From assembly GCA_010093995.1 (NCBI GenBank), contig ML992503.1:1479234-1543233 (forward strand): a DNA stretch of 64,000 nucleotides, in the 5' to 3' direction. Source of the DNA: Elsinoe ampelina. Its lineage: Eukaryota. Every line of letters starts with the position of its first letter. Position 1 is the first letter of the stretch. The notes beneath the pieces were generated by a model, which did no database searches, was not told the origin of the DNA, and was given only the letters and a program-made list of their open reading frames with translations. The translations under genes and the position numbers were made by a program. Of the stretch, positions 2,819 through 54,614 are shown piece by piece.

Positions 2819-3130
2819 AGGGGCGGCACGTCCTGTCTATGAAGGGTCATATGTAGACGGACACCTTTTCAGATGAAGTTACTGACGTCCCGATGCATTC
2901 CGAGTCAAGTCATTGCTATTGTCAATTGTTGTTGCTGGCATATGAGCAAGAAGTGGTCATGTCCACACGGAGCCGCATCGGGTGTTCCGTCCTCAACCTC
3001 GGATATTGAGAAGCTTCAGCTTCACTCAACTTTTTTCCAACCTGAGCATCATAAGCCATTGACCGCCCACAAGTACTTGTAGCAAATCCAAAAACCGAGA
3101 GGATATCCGCGCTCCTCAGCTCTCTACACA

Positions 3131-3955: not shown

Positions 3956-3992
3956 GATTCTGTTTGACCCTGTCTATAGTCTTCCGTCATGC

Positions 3993-5162: not shown

Positions 5163-5734
5163 GCTTGCAGTGATGCTTTGTAGGTTGCGAGTAGGGAACG
5201 ATCTGTGAGATCTCGATGTTCTCTACTGGGAGATATTGGTAGCACTTCGATACTTCATTGCAGGAGAGTATCAATAGAAGAGCAATGCAAAACAGCATCG
5301 TTGGGGTTTAGCCTGAATCCCCACTCATCGGAAGTGGAGACGGCTTATACTTGCCTACCATGGCGTCACGGTCGCTCTGTCTCGTCAAGTATTTACCAGA
5401 TGCAATGGCGTGCTGAAACAAGGTGACAACAAGCCGGGATGTCACAGCTGTGTGTCTATGTACTCGGGTGTGGTATAGGAGGGTAAATAGAAGTCAAGGG
5501 CTGTTACATGTCCGGGAGACTCCGAAGCTCTTCCCTGACGTCGGATCGGTCTTGGCAAGAGCTTTTTCCAATCTGAAGCTTCATCAAGTGAACATTTTAC
5601 CTGCCGCATCAATATCTCTTCCCAGTCAAGCCTTTCACAGTTCCGTCCCCGTCACAGATTGCATTACAAACCTCCCCAGCATCCCCTCCGCGTAGCACCT
5701 CCACCACCACCGACAAATCCCCACACCAACCACA

Positions 5735-33242: not shown

Positions 33243-34581
33243 CTAGTTTGGCCTGGATCTCCTGCTCTTACCAGGTCGCTGCGTCTTGCCTTTCATCTTT
33301 TTGATCGAGAATGATCGAGTATCGGCGCTTGACTCAGCATCGTTGCTCTTCGCAAACCTCTTTTTTCCGCCGTAACCCCACTTATCGTTCTTCTTCTGCC
33401 TCTTTGCGCCCGGGGGACCGGTACCGCCACCCGCCTTACGGGCAGCCTTGTCCTTCTTCTCCGTCACGGCAGCATCTTCGAGCGCAACGTCGAACATGTC
33501 GTCCTCGTTCGCGTTGCCAATGGAGGCACCTGATCGTTCTGGATGGAGTCAGTACGCGCTTTGACGATCCGTAGTGGAAGCTGAACTCACTCTTCTTGAG
33601 CATCTTGATCTTGTCAAGCGTCTCCTTCTTTGCCTTGTCTCTCTCCTGCAGTTTCGCAATCTGTACCTGCTTGCCGAACTTCTTGAGGTCTCTTTGCTTC
33701 CTTGCTTCTGCCGCAGCCTTCTTGCTCGCCGCATCATCCACCAATTTCTTCTTGATCTTACCCATGTGCTCATCAGACTTGACCATCTCCGCGAAGTAGT
33801 CCGCTGGCCGAGAGAAGAGGACGCCTTCCTTCTTGAGTAAAGACCGCGCCTGAGTCACGGCTTCGAGCGATTGTTTGTAGAATGCCAGTTCTCGGCCAAG
33901 GTCGTCCTCGATATCTGCGATTATAGTTGGGGCTGATGAGACCACAGCTTGTGTGGCTGAAAAGGGAAGGGACGCTGGCAACGCTATCGACTTGTATGCC
34001 TTTGTAAGAGCCACGGTGTTGTTGATTGTGAGTCGTTGATGTGGTACCACATCTTCCTTCTCATCAGATGCCAGCGACTCAATGTCCGAGAGCGGGATGT
34101 CCTCATCGTCCTCCTCGTCCTCGTTGTCATCTTGTTCCGCATCGCCGTTCAACGCGTGGCCATTCGTTTTGGCAGTTGGTGTATTCAGGTCGTCTCCTTG
34201 ATCATCTTCCGAATCTGATGTGTCGCTGTCCTGGAGACGTGAGAGATCGAAGCCTGACTTCTCTAGCTCCTCATCCGCGGTCTCCCAATCCTCGGATCCA
34301 TCTGGAGATGGTATCTCATCATCCGAGACCTCCTCTGAGGCGGCCAGAGCATCCTTCTTTTGGCGTTTGGATTTTGGAGTCTTCTCGTCACGGGAAGCTT
34401 TCGGTGTGTGGAATTGGAGCTCTGTCTCGTCCCCCTCGACCTCGCTGCCATCCTCGGCGACTTCTGTCCGTGATCGCTTGCGTTTCAGAGCCTTCTTCTG
34501 CAATCGCTTCTGCTTCTCGAGTTTGTGATCGATACCCTTCTGACGATCTAGCGCGTCTTTCAGCTTAGCCCCTTTAGCCAT
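33243..34581 (-). CDS. EBP2: rRNA-processing protein Ebp2, 2 exons
   Basis: DDLGRELAFYKQSL, RPADYFAEMVKSDEHMGKIK, KKFGKQVQ, KWGYGGKKRFAKSND, RPGKSRR. Confidence 0.95.
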
Positions 34582-34701
34582 TCTTGTGTTCGAGGAAAAG
34601 TCGAAACCCTGTGTGGATGAGGATCTTGAGGTCGAAGAAATTCTCGGATCACAAAAATTTCCCCACACACACGACGCACGGGCCGAAAATCTATTTGCTT
34701 G

Positions 34702-34780
34702 CACCGTCATGCATACGGTAGCTTCCGCCAAAACAGTCAAAACAGTCAAAACGCTCAAAACCATCAAAACGCTTAAACCT
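34702..34780. repeat. Left TIR with about six 9-bp subterminal units (NNTCAAAAC-like)
   Basis: cgccaaaac agtcaaaac agtcaaaac gctcaaaac catcaaaac gcttaaacc; the same array occurs at 42561-42639. Confidence 0.9.
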
Positions 34781-35004
34781 AGCATTTGCTATTACACCAC
34801 CTCCCCGCGCACTACCTATACCACTTATTGCAATGATTCTTATTGCAATCGACAGCTCTTATGACGCTCTATTGTTTAATGTAAGTATTATTCTCTTATT
34901 ATATACCTTTAGTTTTTTGTAGCTTAGCGCTAGTATAAAAGCTAGGTGCGCTAGTTTTCTATACCTTCCTTCCTATTACCCCCTAATATACTACACTACT
35001 CGAT

Positions 35005-36603
35005 ATAGCTTTATAATCCGCTATAATTAAGGTAGATAGGCCTCTTATCGAGTACTAGTTACTATACAAGCGCTATAATTAGCCTAAAGTACTCTAGAGA
35101 CTATTAAGGCGTAGTTACACTCTATTACTTAGAATGCTCTAGCGCCTCTTATAAGGCTAGTAGCTCTCTACCTACCCTAAGGCACTAGTTAACTCCGAGG
35201 CTCTCTACTATAGTATTAAGAAGCTATTCTAGCTATGTATTAGCTAGTAAGAGACGCTAGAGGTATTAAAAGAGTAAGGCTTTGATATATTGTTAGGGAC
35301 GCTAAAGCGCCTATGTAAAGAGTTAGACCTTATCTATCGGATTAATCGAGAAGAGGACAAGGTTAAGTATAAGCGAATATAGTAGCTACTATAAAGCAAA
35401 TATAACACTAGTAATATTAAGGATTAGAGCCTTAGCTACCTTTACACCTATATAAGATAGAAGTATAGGATTATCGGGAGGTAATACGTGTTTGTAATGC
35501 GTTCGCTAGTTGGTTTACTAACTCTAACCTAGTCGGCGCCTTTACTGCGCCGTAATTACAATTAATCCCTTAGCGTTCTAGATTCGTAGTAACTAGCGGC
35601 CTGCTAGTTATAGCGTATAAGATGTGCTAGGGCTAAACTATACCTAGTCGATAGACGCCTATTACAAGCTTAAGGAGTATAGTATTAAGATTTATACTGT
35701 AATTAACAAATTTTCACGCTATATTATTTAGGCCTATATAGGCTTCTCGGCAAGGAAGGCTATATTAATTATAAAGTAGTACACTACTATTGCTGCCTTA
35801 TGTAGCCGGATTCCCCTCGAGATCCGCATAGATAGAGGGAGCAAGACTATAATAGTCTTATAAGTGTATCTCGACGCTTAGCGTTAGCTAAGTAGTCTCT
35901 CTTTAGAGGTAAATAAAGCCTTCTTATTCGGTATAAGTAAGTAGAATTAGTATATTAAATTATAGTAGGCCTAGCTTGCAAAGAGCACTATAAACCGCTA
36001 GCGAAGATAGTTTACTAAGCTAAAGAAGTTAAAGCGCTAGAAGCGTAATTTTATCGCTTACTAAGTCGCTCTTATAGCTATATATATGCCTATCCTTTGC
36101 GTAGAGATATAGCAATTCGTGTATTAATAGAACTATTACTACATCCGGAAGTAGCCGAGACAACCGTACACGATTATAGAAGTGCTAAGGCTCCTATATT
36201 ATTATCTAGAGGTAGTCGGTGTATAGAACTATACCGTTGCTATACTACCTAACTAATTCGACAATTTAGACTAGTATACTAGCGAATTCGGTAAGGTATA
36301 AGTGCTAATAGATATTTGTAGCTAATTAAGCACTAGATTATAAGTAATATCTACTCTCTAATACTCTTAATCTCTATACCTTAATCCTCTCTACCGCTGG
36401 CCTCTAGCCTTATAATAGTCGAGCAACTAATGCTTATAGTGTTAGACTCCACTAGAGAGCTTATTTTATGCTTCGTGATACACTAATTAAGCACGATTAA
36501 TAGTAGCGCTATTCTCTACTATTAGAGTACTAAAAACTAGATAATTCTCGAGGCTATTAATTACATATAGAAGTTGCCGAGCAAATCGCAAACGCTAAGT
36601 AAA
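35005..36603 (+). pseudogene. ORF1 of copy A: tandem HTH (Clr5-like) + IS3/rve-type DDE transposase, RIP-mutated, with introns
   Basis: Literal reading DVLGLNYT*SIDAYYKLKEYSIKIYTVINKFSRYII*AYIGFS...IRIDRGSKT...FLFGISK*N*YIKL**A*L; de-RIPed VPGPNYTWSID...EIYAVIDKFSRYIIW...RTDRGSET...FGTSKQNQRIESWW. D at 35654, D at 35831, inferred E at 35957. Confidence 0.85.
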
Positions 36604-36729
36604 CACACTATAAACATCTAACTTATGTATATTAAATCCTCTCTCTAATATACTAGAGCTTTCCTACTCTATTTTCTCTACGGTTTTTGCTTATTACTAC
36701 TATATTGTTTGTTTATTACTACTAGCGAG

Positions 36730-38340
36730 ATGCCGCTACCTTCTTAGGCACCTTTTTGCAAATATAAAGGCTCTAATTACGTAGTTAAATATAGACACCT
36801 CGCTAAGTGTCCTATTTGCTATAAGACTAATCTAAACTATTAATAAGTAAGTATAGCATTAACGCTAGAAGAGCCTTAGTGCTAACCTATATAGGCTAGT
36901 CTATCTCGCGCACTATCTAGTAGTCTAACTCGCGCGCTATCTTAGACTAACATAGACTAACTCGTAATTATAGCGGCGAATATAAAGCAATCTACAGCGC
37001 TAGCGCTAACCGTATATAGTAGTCTCTCGACTAAAGCTAATATAGCAAGGCGTGCTAGATACTAGAAGGGCAAAAAGGCTAAAGGCGTAGTAGCACAATT
37101 ACTACATATAGAATCTTTACTAGTCTCTTAGCGTTTGTATAAAGACTTGCTAAACAATTTACCTAACGAAGAAACTCCTAAAGGACTAAAGGCTAATAAA
37201 GAGCAAAGGATTAGACTTTACCTCTATAGCCTAATAATCGAGATAGAGTATAAGCTTAAGTATAGCATGCCTTATAAGAAGATTGTCTCTTAGCTAGAGC
37301 TAACTAAGTAGACGGACTAGATTACACTATTAGAGTTTAATACCGAATTACTAGAGAGTAACTACTAAAGAACGTTCTTCTTATTAAATTTAGTCTATAG
37401 TTACTGCCCTAATTCTACTATCTACGATCTAGAAATAGTAATACTACGCTTTACGAAGCGCTATTTTGCACTAATAGAGGACAATAAGGCTATACCTATT
37501 GCCGATAACGTCTTCTAGTAGCCGAGTATCTAGAAGATATTAGTTAGCCTCCTACGTAAGCTAAAATCGAAGTATACTACTATCGAGCATCTCCTTTATA
37601 TTATAATTAAATAAGCTAAGGACGACAAGTTAAAGGAACAGTAGAAGTATATAGAGTATCTATAGAGAGGGTTAGGATCTCCGAGTTACGCTATAAACGC
37701 TAATATAAACATAACAATATTCCTAGCTATAAATACTAAAGCGAATATTAAGGCTAATTCGTAGAATAAAAATCTTTTTATAGAGGACACTAACTTCTTG
37801 TTTTTGAATACTTCTAACGACATTAACGTTAAGCCGGAACCCTTATTAGTTAACAATAAGATTAAGGCCTTAATCGAGAAGTGCACATAGTAAGTTTTAG
37901 TAGCTAGGGCAAAGGGGAAGGAGAAGTAGCCTAGCTAGCTCGTTAACGGCAAGGAGACTATCGACCTTATAGAGTCTTTACTAGCCGCACCTACTGCCGC
38001 CGTGCTAGCTCTACTACTAGAGACTCTACGCTTCTAGCTTTGTACTAGGAGCCTTCTTATAAGTATACTAACTAGCATAGTTAGTAGTGTTAAGTCATTA
38101 ACTACATAGGACAATCTCTTTAACTTAGATAGTACTACCGAGCCTCTACTACCTTTTAACACCCCTTGGCAGCCATAGCGTATAGTGCTAAGTAAGGAGA
38201 CCCTTAGTAGGCTAATAAACTTACTACATAGCTCTCTCTTTAAAGCTAAGTTATCTATAGGATTAGAGTAAAGAATTAAGACTAAGGCAACCTCTAAGGA
38301 GCATTAAGAATAGCACAAGCAAGTTAACAAGCCTAAGTAA
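36730..38340 (+). pseudogene. ORF2 of copy A: unknown protein of about 500 aa with Cys/His N-terminus, RIP-mutated; 3' end approximate
   Basis: ATG 36730 (50812 in copy B), FC..HLAKCPIC, intron about 36847-36894, then a long frame whose stops in the part I translated are all TAG/TAA. Confidence 0.6.
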
Positions 38341-38499
38341 TTATATTAACCTTAAATACATAAGCAAACACGAAGTAATTACTTAGTTAAGGCTAGTAAG
38401 TGTTAAAAGACTATAGTTAATTTAACTAACTACACTCTCCGTAGTTATACTAGCTATAAGGCTAAAAGGCCTTATAAGTCTATACTAGGGTTATAGGCT

Positions 38500-39800
38500 T
38501 GCCTAAAAGGGTAAGGCGTAGTTTGACACCCTATATATATACTTCTTCTTACTAATAATTCTCTTCTAGTAAAAAACCTCTTTATAGAGAGGAGAGAGAA
38601 AGAGAGAGAAGGTAAGAGCCTCCTACGTAGCGGAGAGTATAAGCACTCTCTACTACATCCTACTATCTTACTATTAGGGTAGTAGGGTAGAGAGGGGAGA
38701 TACGAGAGGGAGTAGGGGTAGGGGTAGTAGTAGGGGTAGAGTTAGGGGTAAAGGTATTAGTTAGAGGTATACGAATTAGACAGTGCAAGTTAGATAGTAG
38801 TAGAACAGTTTATAGTACAAGCTAGATAGGTAGTAGACTAGTTTATAGTGTAAGCTAGACAGCAGTATACGAGTTAGACAGTAGTAACGAGTTAGATAGT
38901 AGTACGAGCTAGACGGTAGTAACAAGTTAGACAGCGGTATACGAGTTAGACAGTGTAAGGTAGATAGTGCAAGTAGGATCGCTAGTAGTTCGCTAAGTAA
39001 TTCGTAGTACATATAGTTACAATTTAATATTAACTAGAGAAGGCGATACAAAGGGGGTAAAATTATAGTCTATAAACTCTAGAAGAATATATAGGTATTA
39101 TGTTTGCTACTAGTTTATAGGCCTGTTTACAAGTTCTATAATTCTATCCCTTAGCTACTATAGCTTAGCCTTAGTAGCGAGCGTATTATTCTCTAGCGCC
39201 TCTACTCTCTACTTAAGCTCCTTAATATAGCCCGTAGTTACTAGCTTCTAATTCTCTAGCTCCTCCTTTATAAGCTAAGAGGCATACCCCTAGCAATAGT
39301 AGCGGCGGCAGTATGTATATAACTTAAACGGCTTATTAAGGAAGCAAGTACATAGCTCGTTTACCTTTATACACTATTCGTAGGCGTGTTTACTAATGCT
39401 ACCTTCGTCTATCTCTATAATACGGCTAATAGCGTCGTATATACGGAGCGTTATGAAGTTCTTACTACGCTTATTACCGCTAGTCTCGTAGGTATTAACG
39501 AGCTTAAACTAGTTTAACTCGGAGATAAACTAAAATCTAGCTAGATTCTTAGTCTTAGGGTAGTAGTATAAGTATGTAATAGGGTAGCTATACGAATCAG
39601 TAGCGAACACTAGCCTAAGGAGCTATAAAGACATATATGGCCTTAGAGTTGCTAGTTGTTTCCTTAGAGGTATCGGAGGTATAGGGATCGTTATTAATTA
39701 TAGCATCTAGCGCTTATAGATTGTATCTTCTAGAAGGCGAAGTTAGTAGCGAACTAGCTGCGAACATGCTATAATACATACTTAGTAGAAGTTGCTTTAG
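38500..39800 (-). pseudogene. ORF3 of copy A: Zn2Cys6-like cluster + coiled coil + repetitive tail, RIP-mutated; ends approximate
   Basis: 39382-39284 de-RIPs to CEQC-x6-C-x10-CTYC-x7-C, followed by heptads IKELKQRVEALENNTLATKAKLQQLRDRI; minus-strand intron signals near 39590-39640 and 39730-39780. Confidence 0.6.
38770..38975. repeat. Degenerate 14-21 bp tandem repeats (GAGTTAGACAGYAGTA-like) inside the transposon
   Basis: About 10 copies of agttagac/agctagac cores; also present at about 52855-53055 in copy B. Confidence 0.8.
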
Positions 39801-40319
39801 TGGTGTTAGCTATAGTAAATATTTAATTAAATTTAACAGGGTCGTAATAGTATAGTAGAGTTCTAATTAAACTATATAGTAACTATAAGCTTATATATAT
39901 TAAAGCTGCTATCATTGTTGCTAGTTTAAATAGTAACAATGGTGACAATAGTAATAATATAAAGACCTAAAAGCGGCAAGGAATAATAAACACCTACTAG
40001 ATTAAGCCTTACTCTTAGTAGCTTAAATAGAGGACAATAGAGATCTATTCTAACAGTATTTATAGTGCATTTGCCGCCGTAGTTGTATAATGTAGGCAAT
40101 ATTAAGGTGTTAGAGGTAGGAGTGCTAGCGGAGTACTAAGCACCTCGCTACCTAGCCGCTATAACACGCACTAATTACGCTAGTACTAAAATTAGCTCAA
40201 AAAAAATACTTAAAGTTAGAGGATGATAGAATAGATTAATCTAATCAATTTACTGTTAATTGTATATCAATATTGACAGAATTAAGGGAGTTAGAGGCCT
40301 CCAAACTTTGATGATTTAG

Positions 40320-40380
40320 GGATTTAAGTGTTTTAATGGTTTTGACGGTTTTGGCGGAAGCTACCGTATGCACGACCGTC
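40320..40380. repeat. Right TIR with about four 9-bp subterminal units
   Basis: gatttaagt gttttaatg gttttgacg gttttggcg gaagctaccgtatgcacgaccgtc; the same at about 54402-54462. Confidence 0.9.
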
Positions 40381-40467
40381 GCTTGACGCCGATCCGCCGA
40401 CCTCACGGCGCTCCCGTCCATGCTCGCTTCAACTGTTGCCCCCCTTCCCACATTTACTGCCTACATC

Positions 40468-40793
40468 ATGTCTTCAGGTAGTCCAAACAAGGCCAATGAG
40501 GTGAGGCGAGTCTTCTTCTTGTTCTGACGATGCTGACATGCGTGATCAGGGAACCGACTCTGCCCCCGCCGAGTTGACTGCTGTGGTCGAGGATCTTCTC
40601 AACCAACTCACAAACAAATTCTCTACCGTATCGTCTGAGATGCTATCCAAAAGTACTATGTGTTGCTCCATTTGGTCAAGGCTATCGTTGACGGTGATCA
40701 GTGGACGACATGTCCAAGCGACTAGACAACCTAGAAGCTATCATTCAGCAGAGCACCAATCAAAGCACAAACGAAGACGCCAAATCATCGTGA
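40468..40793 (+). CDS. Heat shock factor binding protein 1 (HSBP1) family, 3 exons
   Basis: ELTAVVEDLLNQLTNKFSTVSSEMLSK|MDDMSKRLDNLEA. Confidence 0.88.
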
Positions 40794-40885
40794 TCATTCA
40801 TTATGTGGCGCCATGATGGCTGAAATCCCAAGCTGGGACGACGTCAAATCCTGGGGTATCAAAAGTAAACTAGTGTCGTGACGAT

Positions 40886-42364
40886 CTAATATCGTCTTAC
40901 GATAGGCGCTGGAAAACCTCTACCACCAATCTCTTGAATCCTCTTCATCAATCGGTTCACTGGCTGACCCGGTGCTTCCATGCGCTTCACGAGCTGCATC
41001 CGGAGCTCTGCATCTTCGTCGTTGACGTGGACTCGGTAGTGCCCCTTGATCAACTTCTGGGAAGCTGGATCTGAGGCTGCATAGACTTTGTGCATGCATC
41101 CATCGAGCGGACATGACCAGGTGTCCCCTTCGCCGTTACCAGCCGTGTGCTCCTTTCGCAGCCGAACGGGTATGCTGCTCCCAAGACCGTTGAGATTCGG
41201 GATCATCAACTCTGAACTGTCTTCGCTCTCCTCGGAATCGTCATGACCCATGTCAATGCCTTCATCAACTACCTCTGCGCCGGCAGTCACATCGCCATCC
41301 TGCTTCGACACCAAGTCGCTAGCACGTCGAGCGCCCAACCGAATCTTGACAGGTGGTAGTTTCCGCTCCGGTCGTCGGTCAGACTGCGGCAGATCGGCAA
41401 GCTCGTCTACATTGTCATCCTCGGCTTCGATGGGAATGAACGTCGTCGATTTTGGTCTGAGGACTGATTTGCCCTTGTTTCCACGCGGCCGCTTCCCAGG
41501 TCGTTCGCTCTCGTCACTGTCGTGTGGCGTCTCTGTGCGGGGCGTCGAAGGTTCGTCCCTGGCCATCCGCCCTCTGCTTTTACCCGACCGTACCGACTCC
41601 CCCCTCTCCGATGGCTTGTCGTGATCGTCCCTCTTCCTTTTCGTGCCCGCCTTTGACCTTACTTTACCACCCTGCAATTGATTCTTCACGTCGTCAACAT
41701 CGTCTGGAAACGTTTCCACCAGCCACTCCCAGATCCCTGTCTTCTCCCATTCCACCTCCTCCTTCCCCTGAATCATGCTCTTGATCAAGAACCCTCTATG
41801 CTTAACAAACACGTTCCTCCCGATCTCCTCCCCAGCCAGCTGATTCGCCTGCGCATATCCCGCAAACACCTCCTCTGCACTCACATCACCACGCCGCCTT
41901 TTCCCCTTTCGACTTTTCGTCTCATTCACCCGACTATACACGTCCGCAGCGTAATATAGCGCCTCGATCGCCTCAATCATCGCATCGTAGATAGCCTTGT
42001 ACGCCCTCGACGGCCGCACAGTGAACCACCCCGCCTTGCCTGCGGCCCAAAGATCTATTCGTCCATCATCGTACTGCCCGTACGCGAACTGCCGCACCTG
42101 CGCAAGCTCAATCAGCTCCGCGCCGCCGGGTCGGATGCGCAGGTGTGCCAGATCGCGCGGGACCGAAGGCAGTTTGGCGCGGAGGAGGAGAGGGGCGTGG
42201 ATGTCGGCTGTGAGCAGGGAGGTGAAGGATGCTGGGTCGAAGGAGGCGCTGTCTCCCGGGAAGACTTCGACGGAGGAGAGCGTGAGGATGGGCCAGTCGT
42301 CGCTTGGGGTGGAGGGGTCGACGGGGCGGAGGAGCTGGGGTTCGGGGGTGAAGGCGGAGGCCAT
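40886..42364 (-). CDS. Putative RFTS (DNMT1 replication foci) domain + C-terminal zinc finger protein, Raf2/DIM-7-like
   Basis: DDWPILTLSSVEV, QFAYGQYDDGRIDLWAAGKAGWFTVRPSRAYKAIYDAM resemble the fungal RFTS domain; C-terminal WSCPLDGC...HYRVH; intact 492-aa ORF. Confidence 0.7.
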   Translation of the reverse strand: MASAFTPEPQLLRPVDPSTPSDDWPILTLSSVEVFPGDSASFDPASFTSLLTADIHAPLLLRAKLPSVPRDLAHLRIRPGGAELIELAQVRQFAYGQYDDGRIDLWAAGKAGWFTVRPSRAYKAIYDAMIEAIEALYYAADVYSRVNETKSRKGKRRRGDVSAEEVFAGYAQANQLAGEEIGRNVFVKHRGFLIKSMIQGKEEVEWEKTGIWEWLVETFPDDVDDVKNQLQGGKVRSKAGTKRKRDDHDKPSERGESVRSGKSRGRMARDEPSTPRTETPHDSDESERPGKRPRGNKGKSVLRPKSTTFIPIEAEDDNVDELADLPQSDRRPERKLPPVKIRLGARRASDLVSKQDGDVTAGAEVVDEGIDMGHDDSEESEDSSELMIPNLNGLGSSIPVRLRKEHTAGNGEGDTWSCPLDGCMHKVYAASDPASQKLIKGHYRVHVNDEDAELRMQLVKRMEAPGQPVNRLMKRIQEIGGRGFPAPIVRRY

Positions 42365-43497
42365 GGTTGGTCGTTCCGAAAGGCTTTGGCGAGACAGGAG
42401 AACGGCAGGTATTGATGGGATTCTCACGACATGGCAGAAATGGCAGCGTGAGTAGCAATGCCCTAGTTTCGCAGAGATGAATGCTCGAGTCAAAGGTGGT
42501 GAGTGAAACGCGAGAGTTGCGGCTCATTCCATCCCGCGCCCTTGACGCGCTTGTCTCGATCACCGTCATGCATACGGTAGCTTCCGCCAAAACAGTCAAA
42601 ACAGTCAAAACGCTTAAAACCATCAAAACGCTCAAACCCAGCATTTGCTATTACACCACCTCCCCGCGCACTACCTATACCACTTATTGCAATGATTCTT
42701 ATTGCAATCGACAGCTCTTATAACGCTCTATTGTTTGATGTAAGTATTATTCTCTTATTGTATACCTTTAGTTTTTTGTGGCTTGGCGCCGGTATAAAAG
42801 CTAGATGCACTAGTTTTCTATACCTTCCTTCCTATTACCCCCTAACATACTACACCACTTGATATAGCTTTACAATCCGCTATAATCGAGGTAGATAGGC
42901 CTCTTATTAAGTACTAGTTACTACATAAGTGCTATAATTAGCCTAAAGTACTCTAGAGGCTATTAAGGCGTAGTTACACCCTATTACTTAGAACGCTCTA
43001 GCGCCTCTTATAAGGCTAGTAGCTCTCTACCTACCCTAAGGCACTAGTTAACTCCGAGGCTCTCTACTATAGCATTAAGGAGCTATTCTAGCTACGTATT
43101 AGCTAGTAAGAGACGCTAGAGGTACTAAAAGAGTAAGGCTTTAATATATTATTAGGGACGCTAAAGCGCCTACGTAAAGAGTTAGGCCTTATCTATTAGA
43201 TTAATCGAGAAGAGGACAAGGTTAAGTATAAGCGAATATAGTAGCTACTATAAAGTAAATACAACGCTAGTAATATTAAGAATTAGAGCCTTAGCTACCT
43301 TTACACCTATATAAGGCAGAAGTATAGAATTGTTAGGAGGTAATACATGTTTGTAATGCGTTTACTAGTTAGTTTACTAACTCTAACCTAGTCGGCGCCT
43401 TTACTACGCTATAATTGTAATTAATCCCTTAGTGTTCTAGATTCGTAGTAACTAGTAGTCTACTAGTTATAGCGTGTAAGACGTGCTAGAGCTAAAC

Positions 43498-43699
43498 TGA
43501 TTACGACTAGCAAGATAGAAGGTTAATTACGTCTATTCGTTAAGATATTAAGAGTTAGAAGAAGAAGAAGAAAGCTAGTCTATAAAGTACATAAGATATC
43601 GAGAGTAGAGCGGCTAGAAGCCTAGGCCGCGAGCTAAGATCACGTGACCTCTCCGACCTAGATACTAACTAAATCCAGTTCGTAATTTATCTTGTATCA
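43498..43699 (-). repeat. 3' LTR of the Gypsy element
   Basis: TGAT...ATCA termini; polypurine tract on the minus strand immediately inside (plus-strand ctaccccccctct, 43700-43712). Confidence 0.95.
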
Positions 43700-46600
43700 C
43701 TACCCCCCCTCTTAATCGCGTTTACCCTTAAACACTATTATATAGATTAGTTAATCTACCTCGGACGAGGTTTATCTATATAAGAGTCTAGATAGTTATA
43801 TAGCACGTTAGCTACTCCTTTTAGATTATTAATTAGGTACTATGTTAGATCTTCTAGATAACCTTTCTAGCTTACTCGAGTAACTAGTCTATTCCGTAGC
43901 TTTCTTATGTCTATAACATTATTAACCTCGTACTTCTCCTTACCTTTAATAGCTACTAGTAGAGGCTCCTCGAAGGCTTATCCTAGTAAGGAGTTATTAG
44001 AGTGTTTAGTAAGTAGGTCGGCATAGAACATAGAGTAGATACGTTATAGTGCCTAAGGGAGCTCTAGCTTATATAAGAGCGCTAAGCGCTTCTCTAGAAT
44101 CTTATAAGGTCTAACCCTCTTTAGTAGTAGCTTAGAGTTCCCTTAAAGCCGGAGGTTCTTTGTCGATAACTATACTCTATTACTAGCTTCGAACTCCGTA
44201 GAAAGACGCCGCTTGTTTACTTATTTAACTATACGTAATTAAGCCTTTACGAGGTTTACCTTAGCGATCTTATAAGTGTCCTCTATCTACTTAGCTAGTG
44301 CGCGGATACTAGCTTTGTTTAGCTTAGCTCGTGTTAATATAGGCTCTACAGGAGGCTAGAAGCTTAGCCTCGGGTTATATCCCTTTATAACTTAGAATAG
44401 TAATAGTTTAGTACTCTCCGAAGAGTTAATATTAGTAGAGAACTTAGCCATCGGAAGGATTAGTAGCCAGTTTACGTATCGATAGCTATAGGTGCGAATA
44501 ACTCGCTTAAAATTGCAATTAGAAACCTCTAACTAGCCGTCTATCTAGGGGTATATAGTAGTAGACAGTTTAGCCGTGACCTTTAGGATCTAGTAGAGTC
44601 TCTTCTATACGTCGCTTACGAATTAGAGGCCTCGATCCGAAGTGATAGTATTAGGTAGACTATAAAGCTTCTATACGTATAAGAATAACAACTTAGCTGT
44701 CTTATACGCTAAGGTGCCTTCGTCTCTAGAGAAGTAGGGGATAAAGTGGCGCTCTTTAGATAGACAGTTAACTACGTAGAGGATAGTATTATAGCCGTCC
44801 ACAAGCGGTAAACTAGTAACGAAGTCTATTGTAATATGCTACTAAGGCTTTTCTAGTATCGGGAGTAGCAAGAGGAGGCTAGCTAGGAGGCTATAGCGAG
44901 CTTTAGAACGCTTATAGTTGTAGCAGTTAGCGACGAACCTTTTAATATTAGTGTTATACTCTAGGATATAGAAGGTGGATTTAATTATAGCTACGGTTTT
45001 AGCGGCTCTAGCGTGTATATAGTCCTTTAAGGTGTAAACTTCTTAAATAACCTTCGTAGCTATCGATAGTAGCACGAATAGTCGACCGGCAACCTAAAGC
45101 ATTCCGTTGTTAATCGCAATATCGGTCGATAGTAACTATTTCCGCTTAGGGAAGGCTCTTGTTATATAGTGGATGCTACGAGCTAACTTAAACTCTAGGT
45201 CTCTTAGGTTAGCTTTAGCTACCTCGTTAAAAAGGGGAGAAGGTAGTTTGTCCTTTAAGGTCGAGATAGAAGCGAGATAGTTATCTAATCTAGTAGCCGA
45301 AATAGATGTCGAACTAGGTAGTAAACTACGTACTAAACTAGATCGCGAATTAGATTCTAGTTCAGTAGTTAAACTAAGCTTGCTTATTTTTAGTTCGGCT
45401 TAAGCTAGTAATCTACCTTAGATACGACCTAGTTCTAATTCGTTAACGATGCGCTAGTCTAGGACTCTATATAGTAGCAGGGTTTAGCGTAGATTAGGGT
45501 CTTCCTTCGAGCGTAGCACGTTACTATTCCTTCTTATAAGTGCGTTAGCTTTGCTATTAGCAGCTCTAGGTCGATATATTATCTTAAAGTTAAACTGTGC
45601 TAGATAGAGAGCCTAGCGTACTTAGCGGCGTAATAGCTTCTAAGTCCTTATAAAGTGCATTAGAGACTAATAGTTAGTAAGGACGTAAATAGTCTTATTA
45701 GGCTAAGCACTTATAAGCTTAGGGGCCTATTCCTCGAAGGCTTAGACGATAGCTAGTAGCTCCTTATCGTAGATAGTATAGTTGCGTTCGGCTTCGCTTA
45801 TAGATTTACTAAAGAAGGTAATAGAGCGGAGTACATTAGAATCGTCGTACTAGGATAGAATACTAGTAGTAGTAGTGTCCGAAGCGTTAGTTTCGAGTAC
45901 TATCTACTTTAAGTAGTCGAAGTGCGCGAGAATCGAAGCACTAGTTATAGTATGCTTTATGTAGTTAAAAGCAGCAGTATACTTATTACTCTAGGGTACG
46001 GCGTCCTTCTTAAGTAGGTCGTTTAGCGGCTTAGCGATAGTACTAAATCCCTTAATAAAGTAGCGATAATAGCTGTAGAAGCTAATAAAGCTCCTAACTT
46101 AAGTAGTATTACTAGGGGCTAGCTACTTCTAGGCTTTAATAGCTTCTACCTTCTTAGGGTCTATCTAGATTCTATCTCGGCTAACAATAATACCGAGGTA
46201 CTTTACTTCCGTTAGGTAGAACTTGCTCTTCTTAATGTTAGTATTAAGGCCTAATTCGTAGAGTTGTTAGAGTACTAGCTTAATGTACTTAGCGTGCTCT
46301 CGGCAAGTGCTATCGGTGTAGATAAGAATGTCGTCAAGGTAGATCGACATAAAGCGCTCTAGTATATTAATGAAGTTATAATTTATAAATCTCTACTATA
46401 TAGCTAGGGCATTAGTGAGGCCGAAAGGCATTACTAGCTATTTGAAGTTGCCTATACATATAGAGAACGTAGTAAGATCTTTATAGTCGATAGAGTTATA
46501 GAGGTAGTAAAAGGCTTAATAGATGTCGATCTTACTAAACTACTTAGCCTTACTAACGCGAGTAAGCGTCTCTTTAATAAGTAGCAGCGGGTAGATATCT

Positions 46601-49513
46601 CGCTTAGTAACCTCGTTTAGGCCGCAGTAATCGACGTAGAGGCGAAGTTCTCTATTCGGCTTCTAGATAAAGAGGATAGGAGATAAATAGCTTATAGAGC
46701 TTAGGGTAATAAACCCCTTATCGAGGTGCTCTCGGATAAACTATTCTACTATATTAAGCTCCTCTAGTAACAGGCGGCGTAAGGGCTTAGTACGCGGAAG
46801 TTTAGCGCTATCCTTTAGAATAATACAGTTATTAAACTCTAGCCGGTGTAGTAGGAGAGTGTTAGATTACTCCTTAGAGAAGACGTTAGCGAATTTACGT
46901 AGCTCCGGTAGTAGAACCTCTATAGAGTCTAGCTCTAGTTCGGAAGCTAGACGGTAGTAGTCCTCGATATTCTTTATAGAGATAGTAAACACTTCGCAAT
47001 TATAATGCTTAGCTTGTAAGGCAAAGGCTATAGCGCCGATAAAGGCTATTATATAGTTCTTTCGAGGTTTAGCGTCACTTACATAGGTAGGTATGTAAGA
47101 GAACTTATACATTAGCTAGAAGCTATAGGAAACTAGCTTAAACTTCTTCTTATCTAGCTTGAAATTCGGCCTAAGTGCCGGCAGCTAAGATAGACAGGCA
47201 GATTCTAGCTCGGAAGCCGAACTAGAATATAGTCTACGAGCTAGACTACGGCTAAACTAGATCTAAACTAGTCGAGCTCCTAGATCTAAGCCGGGCTTAG
47301 ATCTAGATCCTAGCCCTCTAATTAGCTACGGCTGCTACTACTTAACGACAGCTAGGGAGAACTCTTCTTTATAAGTGACTTAGCTAAGCTTATAGTCGAT
47401 ATTAGCTCTATTAGCCTTAAGCTAGCCGAGCCTAAGAATAATGTCGAAACAGCTAATATCTATAATATAGAAAGTCGTAAGACTATTAAACTTACTAGAG
47501 ACGGTAGTAGTAAGGGGGATCTAATAAGTGACTTACTCTATTAGAACACCGTTATAGGCGTTAAGCTAGATAGAGTTAGCTAACGCTATAGGGCAACTAA
47601 AACTCTTAAGCTTATTAAGAACCTTGTAGTTAACTACGGCGCTAATAAGCGCGCTAGTGTCGATAAAGGCTTAGAGCGTAATAGTGCAGTTGTAGTTGTA
47701 TAGGTCGTGTATAGTGATAGGAGTTATAATAGCGGGAGTGTAGTAGCTAACGACGCTGTTTAGTAATTAAACTCCTCCGGATCTATCTCGAATTACTCTT
47801 CTTCCGCTAGAGGATAGGACTTATCCTCCGGCTAGTCGTTTCCCTAGCTAGATAGTTTAGCTAACTTATAATCTATCTTAGGGTCGAACTAGGACTAAAC
47901 TAGATCCGAACTAATGTTAAACTAAGGCTAGGATAGAGCGTGTGCACCTAATTTAGCGAGTCGATCCTAAAGGTATTAAATCTTAGTAGCCTCTATAGCA
48001 CTAATAGTGCAAGTAGAGTAAGTAGTAGTATAGGTAGCTTTCTCGGAGGCGCTAGCTATACACTTAGTAGAGATATAGCTAGGCCTGCCGCATGCGAAGT
48101 AGATAAGTGACTAGGGGGAGTAGAAAGGCTATAGAGCTCCTCTAGTTATAGGGCAAAGAGTAGTAGAAGCGGATATAGAATAAGCCACTCGAGTTAGGGC
48201 ACTAGTAGCGCGGTTTATAGCTAGCGTAGAGCGGAGGGCCTAAGTGCGCCTAGAGATAAGGTTACTCTACTAGATATTATAATTGGTAGTATAAGTCTTA
48301 GCGATAAAGGAGGTAAGGTCGTCTATGTCGAAATTAATAAGGGCAACGCGTAACTCGTTAGATATCTTCTAGCGTAGCTAGTAGAGCTACTCGTCCTTAG
48401 CGATCTTAGCGTAGAGAGCGTACTTGTTAAACTCGCTAATAAAGGAATTAAAAGAGGTATTACGCTAGAATAGGCTAGCGAACTAAGCGCGTGCTATAGC
48501 CTTACAGTTAGAGTCTTCGAAGCGCTAGGCTAAGAGGGCTAAGCCTTTACTAACGTTAATAGTGTTATCGCTAGCAGAGTCTATAATAAGGGTGTATACT
48601 TCTCTAGAGAGGCGTAAGTAGAGGTATACGAACTAGGTAGCCTCGGTAGAGAATCGGTTAGCGTTAGCACGTATCTTGTTCTTTATCTAGTGCTTAAAGA
48701 CCTTAAACTGCTCTAGGGTGCCGCTACTAAACATAGCTAGGTCTAGGATCTTTTCTAATAGGGTAGCGCCTCTAGTAGAAGAGGTTAGTATAGCGCGCTC
48801 TACTTCGGCCTTTAGCTAGGCTAGCTCGGCCTTAAGCTTATTAATGTTAGCAAGGTAGCGCGTAGCTTAGGTAGTAAGATTGTTAGTAGTACTATTAGAT
48901 GTATCTAGATCGGCTATAGCATTATCGAGCTAGTAGTGTAAATTAAGAGCGTCGGAACGTACTAAGTTACATATAATAACCTACTTGTTATAGGTGAACT
49001 CGACAAAGGCGAAGGCCTTACGTAGAGTAGTTATACTATCTATCTCTTATAGCCTCTTCTTAAGGTCGTCGTCGCTAAGGCAAATAAGATTGTAGTAAGC
49101 TAACTAGACTAGTTCGTTATTGTTGTTAGTAGGAGGTAGAGGAATATTACTTACGTAGTAGTCGTTGCTAGGGTTAGGGCAAGCTATGCTCGGCGAGGTT
49201 AGTTATGAATTTGTAGTATAAAAGTTAATACGTAACAAAGGGGATATCTAAAAAATTTAGCTAAAGGCCTACTTCCTTTAAGAGTCGTCTATAACTCGAC
49301 TTATTATCTTCTTCTTATATTTATAATATTGACCTACGCGGCAGTAGCGAGGATCTATTATAGTATATGCGGGAACTGTAGTTGTAATAGCTTCTTCTTT
49401 AATTCTTTAATTCTTTGTAAATAGTAGTTGTTAGAATTACGTAAGTAGTAGGAGAGCTAGATAGTTTAATAGCTCTATCGCTTAATTACGGGAGCTTCGA
49501 ACTCTTAATATAG

Positions 49514-49715
49514 TAATTACAACTAGCAAGATAGAAGGTTAATTGCGTCTATTCGTTAAGATATTAAGAGTTAGAAGAAGAAGAAGAAAGCTAGTCTATA
49601 AAGTATATAAGATATTAAGGGCAAAGTAGCTAGAAGCCTAGGCTACGAGCTAAAATTACGTAACCTCTCCGACCTAGATACTAACTAAATCCAGTTCGTA
49701 ATCTATCTCGTATTA
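49514..49715 (-). repeat. 5' LTR of the Gypsy element
   Basis: 202-bp direct repeat of 43498-43699; the differences seen are transitions (termini RIPed to TAAT...ATTA). Confidence 0.95.
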
Positions 49716-52700
49716 TAAACTATACCTAGTCGATAGACGCCTATTATAAGCTTAAGGAGTATAGTATCGAGATTTATGCCGTAATTAACAAATTTTTACG
49801 CTATATTATTTAGGCCTATATAGGCTTCTTAGTAAGGAAGGCTATGTTAATTATAAAGTAGTACACTACTATTACTACCTTATGTAGCTAGATCCCCCTC
49901 GAGATCTACACGGATAGAGAGAGCAAGACTATAATAGTCTTATAAGTGTATCTCGACGCTTAGCGTTAGCTAAGTAGTCTCTCTTTAGAGGTAGATAAAG
50001 CCTTCTTATTCGGCACGAGTAAGTAGAATTAGCGTATTAAATTATAGTAGGCCTAGCTTGTAAAGAGTACTATAAACCGCTAGCGAAGATAGTTTACTAA
50101 GCTAAAGAAGTTAAAGCGCTAAAAGCGTAATCTTATTACTTACCGAGTCGCTCTTATAGCTATATATATACCTATCCTTCGCGTAGAGGTATAGCAATTT
50201 ATATATTAATAGAACTATTACTACATCCAGAAGCAGCTAAGATAACTATATATAATTATAGGGGTACTAAGACTCCTATATTATTATCTAGAGGTAGTTA
50301 GCGTATAGGACTATACTATTACTATACTACCTAACTAATTCGACAATTTAGACTAGTATACTAGCGAATTCGGTAAGGTGCGAGTACTAATAGATATTTA
50401 TAGCTAATTAAGCACTAAATTACAAGTAATATCTACCCTCTAATACTCTTAATCTCTATACCTTAATCCTTTCTACTGCTAGCCTCTAGCCTTATAATAG
50501 TCGAGCAACTAATACTTATAGTGTTAGACTCCACTAGAGGGCTTATTTTATGCTTCGTAATATACTAATTAAGCACGATTAATAGTAGCGCTATTCTCTA
50601 CTATTAGAGTGCTAAAAACTAAATAATTCTTAAGGCTATTAATTGTGTATAGAAGTTGCCGAGCAAATCGTAAACGCCGAGTAAATACACTATAAACATC
50701 TAACTTATATATATTAAATCCCCTCTCTAATATACTAGGGCTTTTCTACTCTATTTTCTCTACGGTTTTTACTTATTACTACTATGTTATTTGTTTATTA
50801 CTACTAGCGAGATGCTACTACCTTCTTAGGCATCTTTTTACAAATATAAAGGCTCTAATTATATAGTTAAATATAGACACCTCGCTAAGTGTCCTATTTA
50901 CTATAAGACTAATCTAAACCATTAATAAGCAAGTATAGTATTAACGCTAGAAGAGCCTTAGTGCTAACCTATATAGGCTAGTCTATCTCGCGCACTATCT
51001 AGTAGTCTAACTTACGCGCTATCTTAGGCTAACATAGACTAACTTACAATTATAGTAGCGAATATAAAGCAATCTATAGCACTAGCGCTAACTGTATATA
51101 GTAGTCTCTCGACTAAAGCTAATACGGCAAGGCGTGCTAGATACTAGAAGGGCAAAAAGGCTAAAGGCGTAGTAGTACAATTACTACATGTAGGATCTTT
51201 ACTAGTCTCTTAGCGTTTATATAAGAACTTACCGAACAATTTGCCTAACGAAGAAACTCCTAAAGGACTAAAGGCTAATAAAGAGTAAAGGATTAGACTT
51301 TACCTCTACGGCCTAACAATCGAGATAGAGTATAAGCTTAAGTATAGTATACCTTATAAGAAGATTGTCTCTTAGCTAGAGCTAACTAAGTAGATAGACT
51401 AAATTACGCCGTCGGAGTTTAATACTAAATTACTAGAGAGTAACTACTAAAGAATGTCCTTCTTATTAAATTTAGTCTATAGTTACTGCTCTAATCCTAC
51501 TATCCGCGATCTAGAAATAGTAATACTACGCTTTACAAAGCGCTATTTTACACTAATAGAGGACGATAAGGCTATACCTATTACTAATAACGTCTTCTAG
51601 TAGCTAAGCATCTAGAAGATGTTAGTTAGCCTCCCGCGTAAGCTAAAATCGAAGCGTACTACTATTAAGTATCTCCTTTATATCGTAATTAAATAAGCTA
51701 AGAATAACAAGTCGAAGGAATAGTAGAAGTGTATAAAGTATCTATAGAGAGAGTTAGGATCTCCAAGTTACGCTATAAACGCTAATATAAATACAATAAT
51801 ATCCCTAGCTACGAATATCGAAGCGAATATTAAGGCTAATTTATAGAATAAAAATCTTTTTATAGAGGACACTAACTTCTTGTTTTTAAATACTTCTAAC
51901 AACATTAATATTAAGCTAGAACCCTTGTCGGTTAATAATAAGATTAAGGCCTTAATCGAGAAGCGCACATAGCAAGTTTTAGTAGCTAGAGCAAAGGGGA
52001 AGGAGAAGTAGCCTAGCTAGCTTGTCGATAGTAAGGAGACTATCGACCTTATAGAGTCTTTACTAGCTGCACCTGCTACTGCCGTGCCAGCTCTACTACT
52101 AGAGACTCTACGCTTCTAGCTTCGTACTAGAAGCCTTCTTATAAGTATACTAACTAGTATAGTCGGCAGTGTTAAGTCATTAACTATATAGAATAATCTC
52201 TTTAACTTAGATAGTACTACCGAGCCTCTATTACCTTTTAACACCCCTTGGCAGCTATAGCGTATAGTGCTAAGTAAGGAGACTCTCGGTAGGCTAATAA
52301 ACTTACTATATAGCTCTCTCTTTAAAGCTAAGTTATCTATAGGATTAGAGCAAAGAATTAAGACTAAGGCAACCTCTAAGGAGCATTAAGAATAGTACAA
52401 GTAAGTTGACAAGCCTAAGTAATTATATTAACCTTAAACACATAAGCGAATATAAAGCAATTACTTAGTTAAGGCTAGTAAGTGTTAAAAGACTATAGTT
52501 AATCTAACTAACTATACTCTCTATAGTTATACTAGCTATAAGGCTAAAAGGCCTTATAAGTCTATACTAGGGTTATAGGCTTGCCTAAAAGAGTAAGGCG
52601 TAGTTTAACACTCTATATATATACTTCTTCTTGCTAATAATTCTCTTCTAGTAAAAAACCTCTTTATAGAGGAGAAGGAGAAGGGAAGGGGGGGTAAGAG

Positions 52701-54614
52701 CCCCCTACGTAGCGGAGAGTATAAGCACTCTCTACTATATCCTACCGCCTTACTATTAGGGTAGTAGGGTAAAGAGGGGAAATGCGAGGGGGGGTAGGGG
52801 TAGAGGTAGTAGTAGAGGTAGAGTTAGAGGTAAAGGTGTTAGTTAGAGGTACACGAATTAGATAGTATAAGTTAAATAGTAGTAGAATAGTTCGTAGTAC
52901 AAGCTAGATAGGTAGTAGACTAGTTCGTAGTACAAGCTAGACGGCAGTATACGAGTTAGACAGTAGTAACGAGTTAGATAGTAGTACAAGCTAGACAGTA
53001 GTAACGAGTTAGATAGCAGTATACGAGTTAGATAGTGTAAGGTAGATAGTACAAGTAGAATCGCTAGTAGTTCGCTAAGTAATTCGTAGTACGTATAGTT
53101 ACGATTTAATATCGACTAGAGGAGGCAATATAAAGAGAGTAAAATTATAGTTTATAAACTCTAGGAGAATATATAGGTATTATATTCGCTACTAGTTTAT
53201 AGGCCTATTCGTAAGTTCCGCAATTCTATCCCTTAGCTACTATAGCTTAGCCTTAGTAGCAAGCGTATTATTCTCTAGCGCCTCTACTCTCTACTTAAGC
53301 TCCTTAATACGGCCTATAGTTACTAGCTTCTAATTCTCTAGCTTCTCCTTTGTAAGCTAAGGGGCATACCCCTAGCAATAGTAGCAGCGGTAGTATATAC
53401 ACGACTTAGACAGCTTATTAAGAAAGTAAGTACATAGCTCGTTTACCTTTATACACTATTTATAGGCGCGTTTACTAATGCCGCCTTTGTCTATCTCTAT
53501 AATACAGCTAATAGTGTTATATATATAGAGCGTTACAAAGTCCTTACTACGCTTATTACTACTAGTCTCGCAGGTGTTAACGAGCTTAAACTAGTTTAAC
53601 TCGGAGATAAACTAAAATCTAGCTAGATTCTTAGTCTTAGGGCAGTAGTATAAGTATATAATAGAGTAGCTATACGAATTAGTAGCGAATACTAGCCTAA
53701 GGAGCTACGAAGACATATACGGCCTTAGAGTTACTAGTCATTTTCTTAGAGGTATTAGAGGCATAGGGATTATTATTAATTATAGTGTCTAGCGCTTATA
53801 GATTATATCTTCTAGAAGGCAAAGTTAGTAGCGAACTAGCTATAAACATGCTATAATACATACTTAGTAGAGGTTGCTTTAGTAGTGTTAGCTATAGTAA
53901 ATATTTAATTAAATTTAACAGGGTTATAATAGTATAGTAGAGTTCTAATTAAACTATATAGTAACTATAAGCTTATATATATTAAAGCTGCTATTATTGT
54001 TGCTAGTTTAAATAGTGACAATAGTAATAATAGTGACAATATAAAGACCTAAAAGCAGTAAGGAACAATAAACACCTACCGGATTAAGCCTTACTCTTAG
54101 TAGCTTAAATAGAGAACAATAGAGATCTATTCTAATAGTATTCGTAGTGCATTCGCTGCTGTAGTTGCATGATATAGGCAATATCAAGGTGTTAGAGGTA
54201 GGAGTGCTAGCGGAGTGCTAAGCACCTTACTACCTAGCCGCTATAACACGCACTAATTACGCTAGCACTAAAATTAGCTTAAAAAAAATACTTAAAGTTA
54301 GAGGATGATAGAATAGATTAATCTAATCAATTTACTATTAATTGTATATCAATATTGACAGAATTAAGGGAGTTAGAGGCCTCCAAACTTTGATGATTTA
54401 GGGATTTAAGTGTTTTGATGGTTTTGACGGTTTTGGCGGAAGCTACCGTATGCACGACCGTCTCGATCAGGAAATTTTCCACCAAGGTCTTTTCAATCAG
54501 CTTTGTTAAACTTGATGGCAATAGCAGTAGCCTTTGTCGACCACATTACAAAGAACTTCAATCTATTTCATTCTCATCCGTAGCTTCCTGTTGATGACCT
54601 TCAAGCGTTTCGCC

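Follow-up and report, generated by a model that had tools for sequence, protein, structure and literature searches.

Fungal genomes carry many degraded repeats whose ends and coding content are hard to read, and one such case raises the question of what kind of element it is and where exactly the element stops. In a 64,000-nucleotide stretch of Elsinoe ampelina DNA (assembly GCA_010093995.1, contig ML992503.1, positions 1,479,234 to 1,543,233 of the forward strand; hereafter the window, numbered from its first letter), an initial annotation proposed a three-gene transposon with terminal inverted repeats (TIRs), an IS3/rve-type DDE transposase and a 5-bp target-site duplication (TSD), possibly of an unclassified family. 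Here, we define the boundaries of two copies and show that 5,679 bp moved together as one TIR DNA transposon. From its sequence relationships, the transposase is assigned to the known IS3EU/GingerRoot superfamily and not to a new superfamily or kind of mobile element; what is unusual is only that the ends are shifted outward and that the TSD is 5 bp long.

Repeat finding and blastn place copy 1 at 34702-40380 (5,679 bp) and copy 2, in two pieces, at 42561-54462. The left part of copy 2 (42561..43497, + strand, junction inspected) holds element positions 1-937 at 93% blastn identity to copy 1, and the right part (49721..54462, + strand), which includes the right TIR, holds positions 938-5679 at 91.5%. 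Once the nested insert is taken out of copy 2, the two copies align along all 5,679 bp without a gap, at 91.7% identity and with 469 mismatched positions. The two colinear copies of the initial annotation are thus real, but only after removal of a nested long terminal repeat (LTR) retrotransposon that it did not mention; its boundaries for copy 1 stand, whereas copy 2 ends at 54462 and not at 54461. Homology between the copies stops exactly at perfect, copy-specific 5-bp direct repeats, which direct reading gives as GCTTG for copy 1 (34697..34701 and 40381..40385) and TCGAT for copy 2 (42556..42560 and 54463..54467).

The TIR arms are imperfect, with 83-86% complementarity over 65 nt, and so reach a length of at least 30 bp. 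An inverted repeat search, an alignment of all four termini and a terminal probe agree on the left TIR of copy 1 (34702..34767, + strand) and on its right TIR (40315..40380, - strand). In the termini alignment the left end opens with a 12-bp outer extension, CACCGTCATGCA (34702-34713, + strand), followed by an IS3EU-like canonical terminus, TACGG (34714-34718, + strand), and Tandem Repeats Finder then reports an array of CAAAACAGT-like subterminal repeats (34729-34777, + strand; period 9, 4.7 copies). The right end mirrors this arrangement: 3.1 units of the 9-bp repeat (40330-40357) precede the canonical CCGTA (40364-40368), which sits inside the right TIR, and the element closes with ...GCTACCGTA TGCACGACCGTC, where the last 12 bp (40369-40380) are the extension. 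The 9-bp repeats of both TIRs contain CAAAAC. A 29-nt terminal probe matched four places in the window, namely the four termini, where 100 shuffles gave an expectation of 0. The proposal that a TIR transposon moved as a unit is therefore borne out by different perfect 5-bp TSDs at the limits of homology and by termini that are unique in the window; because the copy-specific repeats lie outside the outer 12 bp, the mobile unit includes those 12 bp.

DNA contigs of the same organism extend this picture beyond the two copies. On the element lie 996 contigs, with a summed word depth of approximately 2,300-3,500 compared with 155-169 on the flanks (about 15-20-fold), a sign of many copies, though it does not count them. 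Two contigs diverge at precisely the 34701/34702 junction; one of these may represent copy 2, and the outer left boundary recurs in at least one additional copy of this organism.

We next turn to what the element encoded. For family searches, the frames of the window were translated through stops, with an X at each. In frame 2, the Pfam model rva_4 (PF24764, 'integrase core domain') is found at E=6e-4, scoring 19.9 bits where the cut-off is 26. A profile built from 14 full-length homologues matches colinearly in three + strand frames: frame 1 at 35083-35493 (profile positions 17-155, independent E-value (iE) 3e-9), frame 2 at 35531-36289 (positions 151-402, iE 7e-50) and frame 3 at 36330-36527 (positions 401-468, iE 1e-3). 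The best match of this profile to reversed-sequence controls had an iE of only 15. Between the segments lie two introns on the + strand, at approximately 35481-35532 (GT..AG, with a TACTAAC branch site) and 36291-36336 (GT..AG), both at profile positions where two relatives (loci L004 and L063) also have introns. The resulting open reading frame (ORF), ORF1, spans approximately 34834..36563 (+ strand), with a first exon that probably begins at the ATG at 34834. The invariant D, D and E columns of the homologues fall in SID, IDRG and NQRIE with a spacing of D-x58-D-x41-E, in agreement with the motifs and the D-x41-E spacing originally read from the letters. Copy 1 has K in place of the catalytic E and 46 stop codons across the three segments. 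ORF1 thus encoded a spliced DDE transposase of about 500-530 amino acids with a helix-turn-helix (HTH) N-terminus and an RNase-H-like core.

A HMMER scan of 1.84 billion representative proteins returned 281 relatives at E<=1e-3 and 73 at E<=1e-10, among them proteins of Venturia, Usnea, Talaromyces, Penicillium, Aspergillus, Rachicladosporium, Peziza, Kalaharituber and Aureobasidium. Their annotations read hypothetical, 'integrase core domain-containing' or 'InsO family', as expected from the earlier remark that such proteins are usually annotated as host genes. All 19 homologues tested carry rva_4, and Clr5 is found in 5 of the 19 at E<=0.01 (4 of those above cut-off) and in 12 of 58 further relatives. 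Together with the rva_4 match in the window frame itself, this confirms the suggested kinship with 'Clr5 + integrase core' proteins. A PDB sequence search with the homologue profile gave weak HTH matches only. The proposed resemblance to IS3 and IS481 is also present, at a weak and sub-threshold level in the NCBIfam models: intact relatives match transpos_IS3 at E 1e-9 to 8e-8, and score 32-38 bits on the two models, whose cut-offs are 160 and 224.

To place the transposase, 80 metagenome loci encoding ORF1 relatives were examined for TIRs around the transposase gene. Ten relatives bounded by TIRs could be scored, and all ten start with TAYRG and end with CYRTA (one with a mismatched right end). 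Perfect 6-bp TSDs lie directly at the ends in 4 of the 10 (L031, L035, L048 and L061); in the other six, symmetric offsets from 0 to 35 were tried and none gave a TSD, which is probably due to chimerism of metagenome contigs that contain repeats. L035 and L048 carry Tet_JBP genes alongside the rva_4 transposase. The terminus of L035 equals that of the published IS3EU-1_TuIn of Tuber indicum, printed in the supplement of PMC12730594, at 18 of the first 19 bases in a by-eye comparison, and the TIR of the window has TACGG followed by GCCAAAAC-type repeats, as in published IS3EU termini. Comparison of the TIRs of the window with the related loci gave no significant blastn-short match. A FastTree phylogeny of 189 core sequences places the window copies in a 38-member clade (96% local support), together with a Rachicladosporium protein and loci L002 and L073 and with no element of known TSD.

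IS3EU has been in Repbase since 2012/2013 and is treated by Kojima 2023 (PMC10045372) and, for fungal TET+ families, by Kojima 2025 (PMC12730594). According to the available text of these papers, its elements have TA..TA ends, in fungal families TAYGG..CCRTA, and usually a 6-bp TSD, which agrees with the annotation's statement that the termini of IS3EU are different and its TSD is 6 bp long; TET/JBP passengers are described there from IS3EU of rusts and Tuber (PMC12730594). Because the same rva_4 family sits in elements with these hallmarks (ends, 6-bp TSD and TET/JBP genes), the transposase can be assigned to IS3EU/GingerRoot, and at the level of kind the label 'unclassified' is not supported. 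The element shares with IS3EU the transposase protein family, with its integrase-like core and HTH-type N-terminus without an HHCC finger, TIRs longer than 30 bp, TACGG followed by GCCAAAA-type repeats, and extra genes beside the transposase, which in the window element are candidates. It differs in that the unit ends with CA.. and ..TC in place of TA..TA, TACGG..CCGTA lying 12 bp inside the ends of both copies, and in that the TSD is 5 bp in both copies and not 6, provisionally at n=2; nor was a TET/JBP or alpha-kinase gene detected in the window element. No IS3EU family with a 5-bp TSD was found in the literature, within a scope that did not extend to Repbase Reports or to the figures and supplements of PMC10045372 and PMC8232023. 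Literature on Clr5 + integrase transposons, PF24764 and transposable elements or RIP (repeat-induced point mutation) in Elsinoe, the last judged by the titles listed, held nothing on this element.

Two of the related loci were complete elements in their own right. L035:261-7746 and L048:5572-13018 are 7.5 kb long, with TACGG..CCGTA ends and 6-bp TSDs. Their gene order is unlike the transposase-TET-alpha-kinase order given in the available text of PMC12730594, and Pfam found no alpha-kinase domain in them.

Both copies in the window are dead, with dozens of stop codons and, in copy 1, the change of the catalytic E to K. All 469 differences between the copies are transitions and none is a transversion, and both copies are therefore RIP-degraded. 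The transitions fall in CpG (213, 45%), CpA/TpG (170, 36%), CpC/GpG (61) and CpT/ApG (25) contexts. The TA/AT index is 2.0 in the element compared with 0.55 in the flank, (CA+TG)/(AC+GT) is 0.4 compared with 1.24, and GC content is 36% compared with 54%; across all contigs placed, transitions account for 766 differing sites and transversions for 32. The annotation had obtained its ORFs by de-RIPing. Here, choosing C or G at every difference between the two copies reopened no ORF and brought GC to no more than 40%, from which it follows that the majority of RIP changes are shared or parallel. CpG is thus favoured over CpA/TpG among the RIP-type changes between these copies. RIP in Neurospora prefers CpA and differs in this respect from the element studied here.

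The most probable history, and one in which we place fairly high confidence, is that of an extinct IS3EU-type family of autonomous class II DNA transposons that were cut 12 bp outside their ancestral ends with a 5-bp stagger and were then killed by RIP. The mobile unit ends in CACCGTC.../...GACCGTC, and its outer 12 bp are identical in both copies. In this history, the subterminal arrays of 9-bp repeats with CAAAAC, present in both TIRs, would have been the binding sites of the transposase, which would have cleaved at these outer ends, 12 bp outside the ancestral TACGG..CCGTA, presumably as a trait of the lineage. Joining of the ends to the target with a 5-bp stagger would then have left TSDs of 5 bp, one base short of the usual length of 6 bp. 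ORF2 and ORF3 may be passengers or accessory genes peculiar to this lineage, of the sort that other fungal IS3EU-like elements carry. Both copies were afterwards riddled by RIP, and a Gypsy element then landed in copy 2.

Several observations count against this history. The outer 12 bp are only 9/12 complementary, and positions 1 and 4 differ by transversions, which RIP does not explain. The TSD length rests on two insertions only (n=2), and if the element is taken to start at 34703, a 6-bp TSD is perfect in copy 2 (TCGATC/TCGATC) and matches at 5 of 6 positions in copy 1 (GCTTGC/GCTTGA). An ACCGT direct repeat flanks the inner, 6-bp-extended element in both copies, and a simple model of outward-shifted cleavage leaves it unexplained. 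Neither 5-bp TSDs nor extended ends occur in any of the 10 scorable relatives, so the suggested check for TIRs with 5-bp TSDs around homologous ORFs turned out negative (0 of 10, against 4 of 10 with 6 bp). L002 and L073, the nearest loci in the tree, do not have both ends, and the placement itself is uncertain, given that the window rows are RIP-distorted and of odd composition. The assignment to IS3EU/GingerRoot is indirect, by way of the relatives and the published descriptions. Finally, no intact copy, empty site or transcript of the element was seen.

The left end is also nearly palindromic (ACCGT-C-ATGCAT-ACGGT, 34702-34718, with its partner end at 40364-40380 and the same in copy 2), and the outer 7 bp are alike at 6/7 positions as a direct repeat compared with 5/7 as an inverted repeat. 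The ACCGT repeat and the near-palindromic end may be chance products of a palindromic terminus or the fossil of a captured flank. If the latter, a Dothideomycete sublineage of IS3EU could have moved its cleavage 12 bp outward and its stagger from 6 to 5 bp, the repeat and near-palindrome being what remains of an old target duplication and adjacent bases that were captured and fixed as new ends; we offer this version tentatively, as possible but rather doubtful.

Capture could also have been a historical accident and no trait of the lineage. The element would then be a canonical IS3EU element, with functional ends at TACGG..CCGTA or at the 6-bp-extended CGTGCATACGG..CCGTATGCACG, and the enzyme may stagger its cuts by either 5 or 6 bp. 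One aberrant cleavage would have picked up the outer bases from the flank, in the form of an old TSD (ACCGT or ACCGTC) and its neighbours. This would account for the direct repeat ACCGT, found in both copies and at either end 6 bp outside TACGG/CCGTA, for intervening 6 bp that are complementary save for one RIP-type change, and for outer 7 bp that fit better as a direct (6/7) than as an inverted repeat (5/7), and it agrees with relatives whose TSDs lie directly at the TA ends. However, both window copies and at least one further contig share the outer boundary with different flanks, so the outer ends were cut repeatedly and not by one accident. Chance alone would moreover produce a 5-mer repeat at one of the approximately 36 offsets tested in a few percent of cases, and a near-palindromic terminus alone generates such repeats. 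We regard a single accidental capture as unlikely.

The TSD might instead truly be 6 bp, with the element running from the A at 34703 (42562 in copy 2) to the C at 40380 (54462) and a point mutation in the TSD of copy 1. Six base pairs is the published norm and is present in 4 of 10 relatives, and copy 2 reads TCGATC on both sides (42556-42561 and 54463-54468), but the extra matching base has a 1 in 4 chance of arising without any duplication. Copy 1 would in addition need a C/A transversion, where 0 of the 469 differences between copies are transversions, and the ends would become asymmetric, 11 and 12 bp outside TACGG, all of which makes a 6-bp TSD quite improbable.

We give very little credence to the idea that the IS3EU part is a passenger, mobilized in trans by a second transposase (CMCT/Transib-like, possibly ORF2) that acts on CAC-type ends and has a 5-bp stagger. 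The left end does begin with CAC, 5-bp TSDs are known in that clade from the available text of PMC12730594, and the ORF2 candidate is large and without family assignment; yet the right end is ...GTC and not ...GTG, the boundary lies only 12 bp outside an IS3EU-type TIR of which the subterminal repeats are part, and ORF2 gives no Pfam transposase signal at E<=1 while the equally RIP-damaged ORF1 scores. A local segmental duplication of an AT-rich block without any transposon, which the 2.2-kb spacing and common orientation of the copies might suggest, has a negligible probability, given that homology ends at TIRs with different perfect 5-bp flanking repeats, that contig depth is an order of magnitude above the flanks with hundreds of diverged contigs on the element, and that the element carries a transposase gene.

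The window element can also be set beside other described systems. One of them is REP9/Styx of Zymoseptoria, described in the available text of PMC8232023 and PMC10853768 as a 7.9-kb, still active element that carries four genes between TIRs of 36-43 bp. Of 36 copies, 33 have 6-bp TSDs, 32 de novo insertions were observed in a pedigree, and approximately 51% of copies lie no more than 150 kb apart. The literature thus already contains multi-gene IS3EU-like elements from ascomycetes. Like Styx, the window element is a Dothideomycete TIR element exposed to RIP, with an IS3EU-related integrase-core transposase, several genes (candidate ORFs in the window) and a new copy near an old one, here 2.2 kb away. 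Unlike it, the window element has a 5-bp TSD, and the DUF3716 that Styx accessory genes carry, according to the same text, was not found in the window by profile. The two window copies, being close and in the same orientation, are reminiscent of the local clustering reported for Styx.

GingerRoot, described in PMC6839031 from Selaginella and animals and not reported there from fungi, has 6-bp TSDs, 100-150-bp TIRs, mostly TA..TA ends and, as printed, a D-x35-E motif; the available text of PMC10045372 joins IS3EU and GingerRoot in one lineage with 99% bootstrap. Its printed core motif S.HNQKIE..W (PMC6839031) resembles NQRIESWW in the relatives of the window element, whereas the spacing here is x41. 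Ginger2/TDD elements have TGTNR termini, 4-5-bp TSDs and an H2C2 zinc finger, and TDD-4 and TDD-5 make 5-bp TSDs (PMC2836005). These too are integrase-like DDE DNA transposons and their TSD length agrees, but membership was rejected because the termini differ and because Pfam assigns HTH/Clr5 and no zinc finger to the homologues. The IS2 subgroup of IS3 also makes 5-bp TSDs (available text of PMC10045372). Prokaryotic IS3 membership was likewise set aside, with scores below cut-off and ends that are not TG..CA; the window gene also differs from IS3/IS481 in being eukaryotic and spliced and in lacking the two-ORF frameshift arrangement. The CMCT clade (CACTA/Transib-like, 2-5-bp TSD, CA..TG ends) was rejected because the right end is GTC and no such Pfam family appears in six frames at E<=1.

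The gene content beyond ORF1 is less certain. The initial annotation counted three genes, of which ORF1 is supported by the profile of 14 homologues, while ORF2 and ORF3 have no homologue or family match; they are candidates only, and the three-gene content is a proposal. The ORF2 candidate (36730..38661, + strand, frame 1) has 644 codons with 38 stops, a stop density below that of the other + frames and fewer stops per codon than ORF1. The ORF3 candidate (approximately 39041..39880, - strand, frames inspected), convergent with ORF1, has 280 codons with 23 stops and contains a Cys/Tyr-rich C-x2-C-x6-C-x10-C-x2-C-like stretch followed by a heptad-like segment. The Pfam and profile check that had been suggested for all three proteins succeeded for ORF1, with rva_4 in the window and Clr5 in homologues, and gave no match for the other two: on all six read-through frames, Pfam found nothing at E<=1 except rva_4. 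A word-indexed search found no homologue of the ORF2 candidate at E<=0.01, and when ORFs of related elements were compared by phmmer with the six frames of the element, only ORF1 was matched. Compared with the 80 related loci, the element gave no blastn match and no tblastx match outside the transposase. A RIP-aware codon-set alignment of 1,043 ORFs from these loci with the six frames had a high null (maximum 421), which was exceeded only by transposase ORFs and by one long ORF that matched all frames. The accessory ORFs of related elements showed no mutual likeness by blastp at 1e-3. Two identities were rejected for ORF3: a profile of DUF3716 from 6 related loci did no better on the window than on reversed controls, and a Zn2Cys6-like spacing is seen by eye only, without Pfam support.

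DUF3716-type Cys-rich ORFs adjoin rva_4 transposase genes in 6 of the 80 metagenome loci, convergently in L003, L004, L021, L025 and L027 and upstream in L073, which suggests a recurrent accessory gene of ascomycete IS3EU-like elements. Between the two candidates of the window lie purine-rich, GGGTAG-like low-complexity repeats (38692..38900, + strand; a direct-repeat family seen in element self-matches). No ORF of at least 70 amino acids exists on the + strand of copy 1; such ORFs occur only on the - strand of this purine-rich stretch, whose repeats explain the stop-free minus-strand 'ORFs' of 82-89 amino acids.

The insert in copy 2 is a RIP-degraded LTR retrotransposon of 6,218 bp (43498..49715, - strand) with LTRs of approximately 200 bp that are 91% alike, flanked by a TAAAC TSD at 43493-43497 and 49716-49720 (junction inspected). 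Its - strand read-through frame matches Pfam RVT_1, RT_RNaseH_2, Integrase_H2C2 and SH3_Tf2-1, and because of these reverse transcriptase, RNase H, integrase zinc-finger and Tf2-type SH3 domains it is of the Ty3/Gypsy type; no other copy lies within the 64-kb window. The surroundings are housekeeping genes separated by short intergenic regions: copy 1 lies between the divergent Ebp2 (33436-34650, - strand) and HSBP1 (40468-41500, + strand), and copy 2 lies 2.2 kb further on, upstream of TruB (54799-56028, + strand). The flanking Ebp2 protein is 97% identical to its E. ampelina counterpart and 92% to that of E. batatas, as expected of an Elsinoe-like Dothideomycete host. RNA-like spliced contigs, under a second organism code, lie only on the HSBP1 gene (40460-41500) and none on the element, although contigs cannot show absence of expression. 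In the HSBP1-like gene they are spliced across two GT..AG introns of 49 nt each (40499-40547 and 40653-40701), with 100% identity to the window. Far from the element, a 77-bp unit is tandemly duplicated at 393-546 with 96% identity.

IS3EU/GingerRoot is a poorly characterized superfamily, described mainly from Repbase entries and a few papers, in which TA..TA ends and a 6-bp TSD serve as diagnostic classifiers. Here, complete boundaries are given for one RIP-degraded family in Elsinoe, and on the assignment made above many 'hypothetical' Clr5/integrase-core proteins of ascomycetes are IS3EU/GingerRoot transposases. If the outward-shifted ends and the 5-bp TSD are indeed properties of a lineage, they would widen the definition of the superfamily, pipelines keyed to TSD length could misfile such elements, and the family would be a starting point for learning what determines the stagger of integrase-like transposases. 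Should the new ends be a captured flank that became fixed, the element would be a natural case study for the evolution of end recognition and TSD length.

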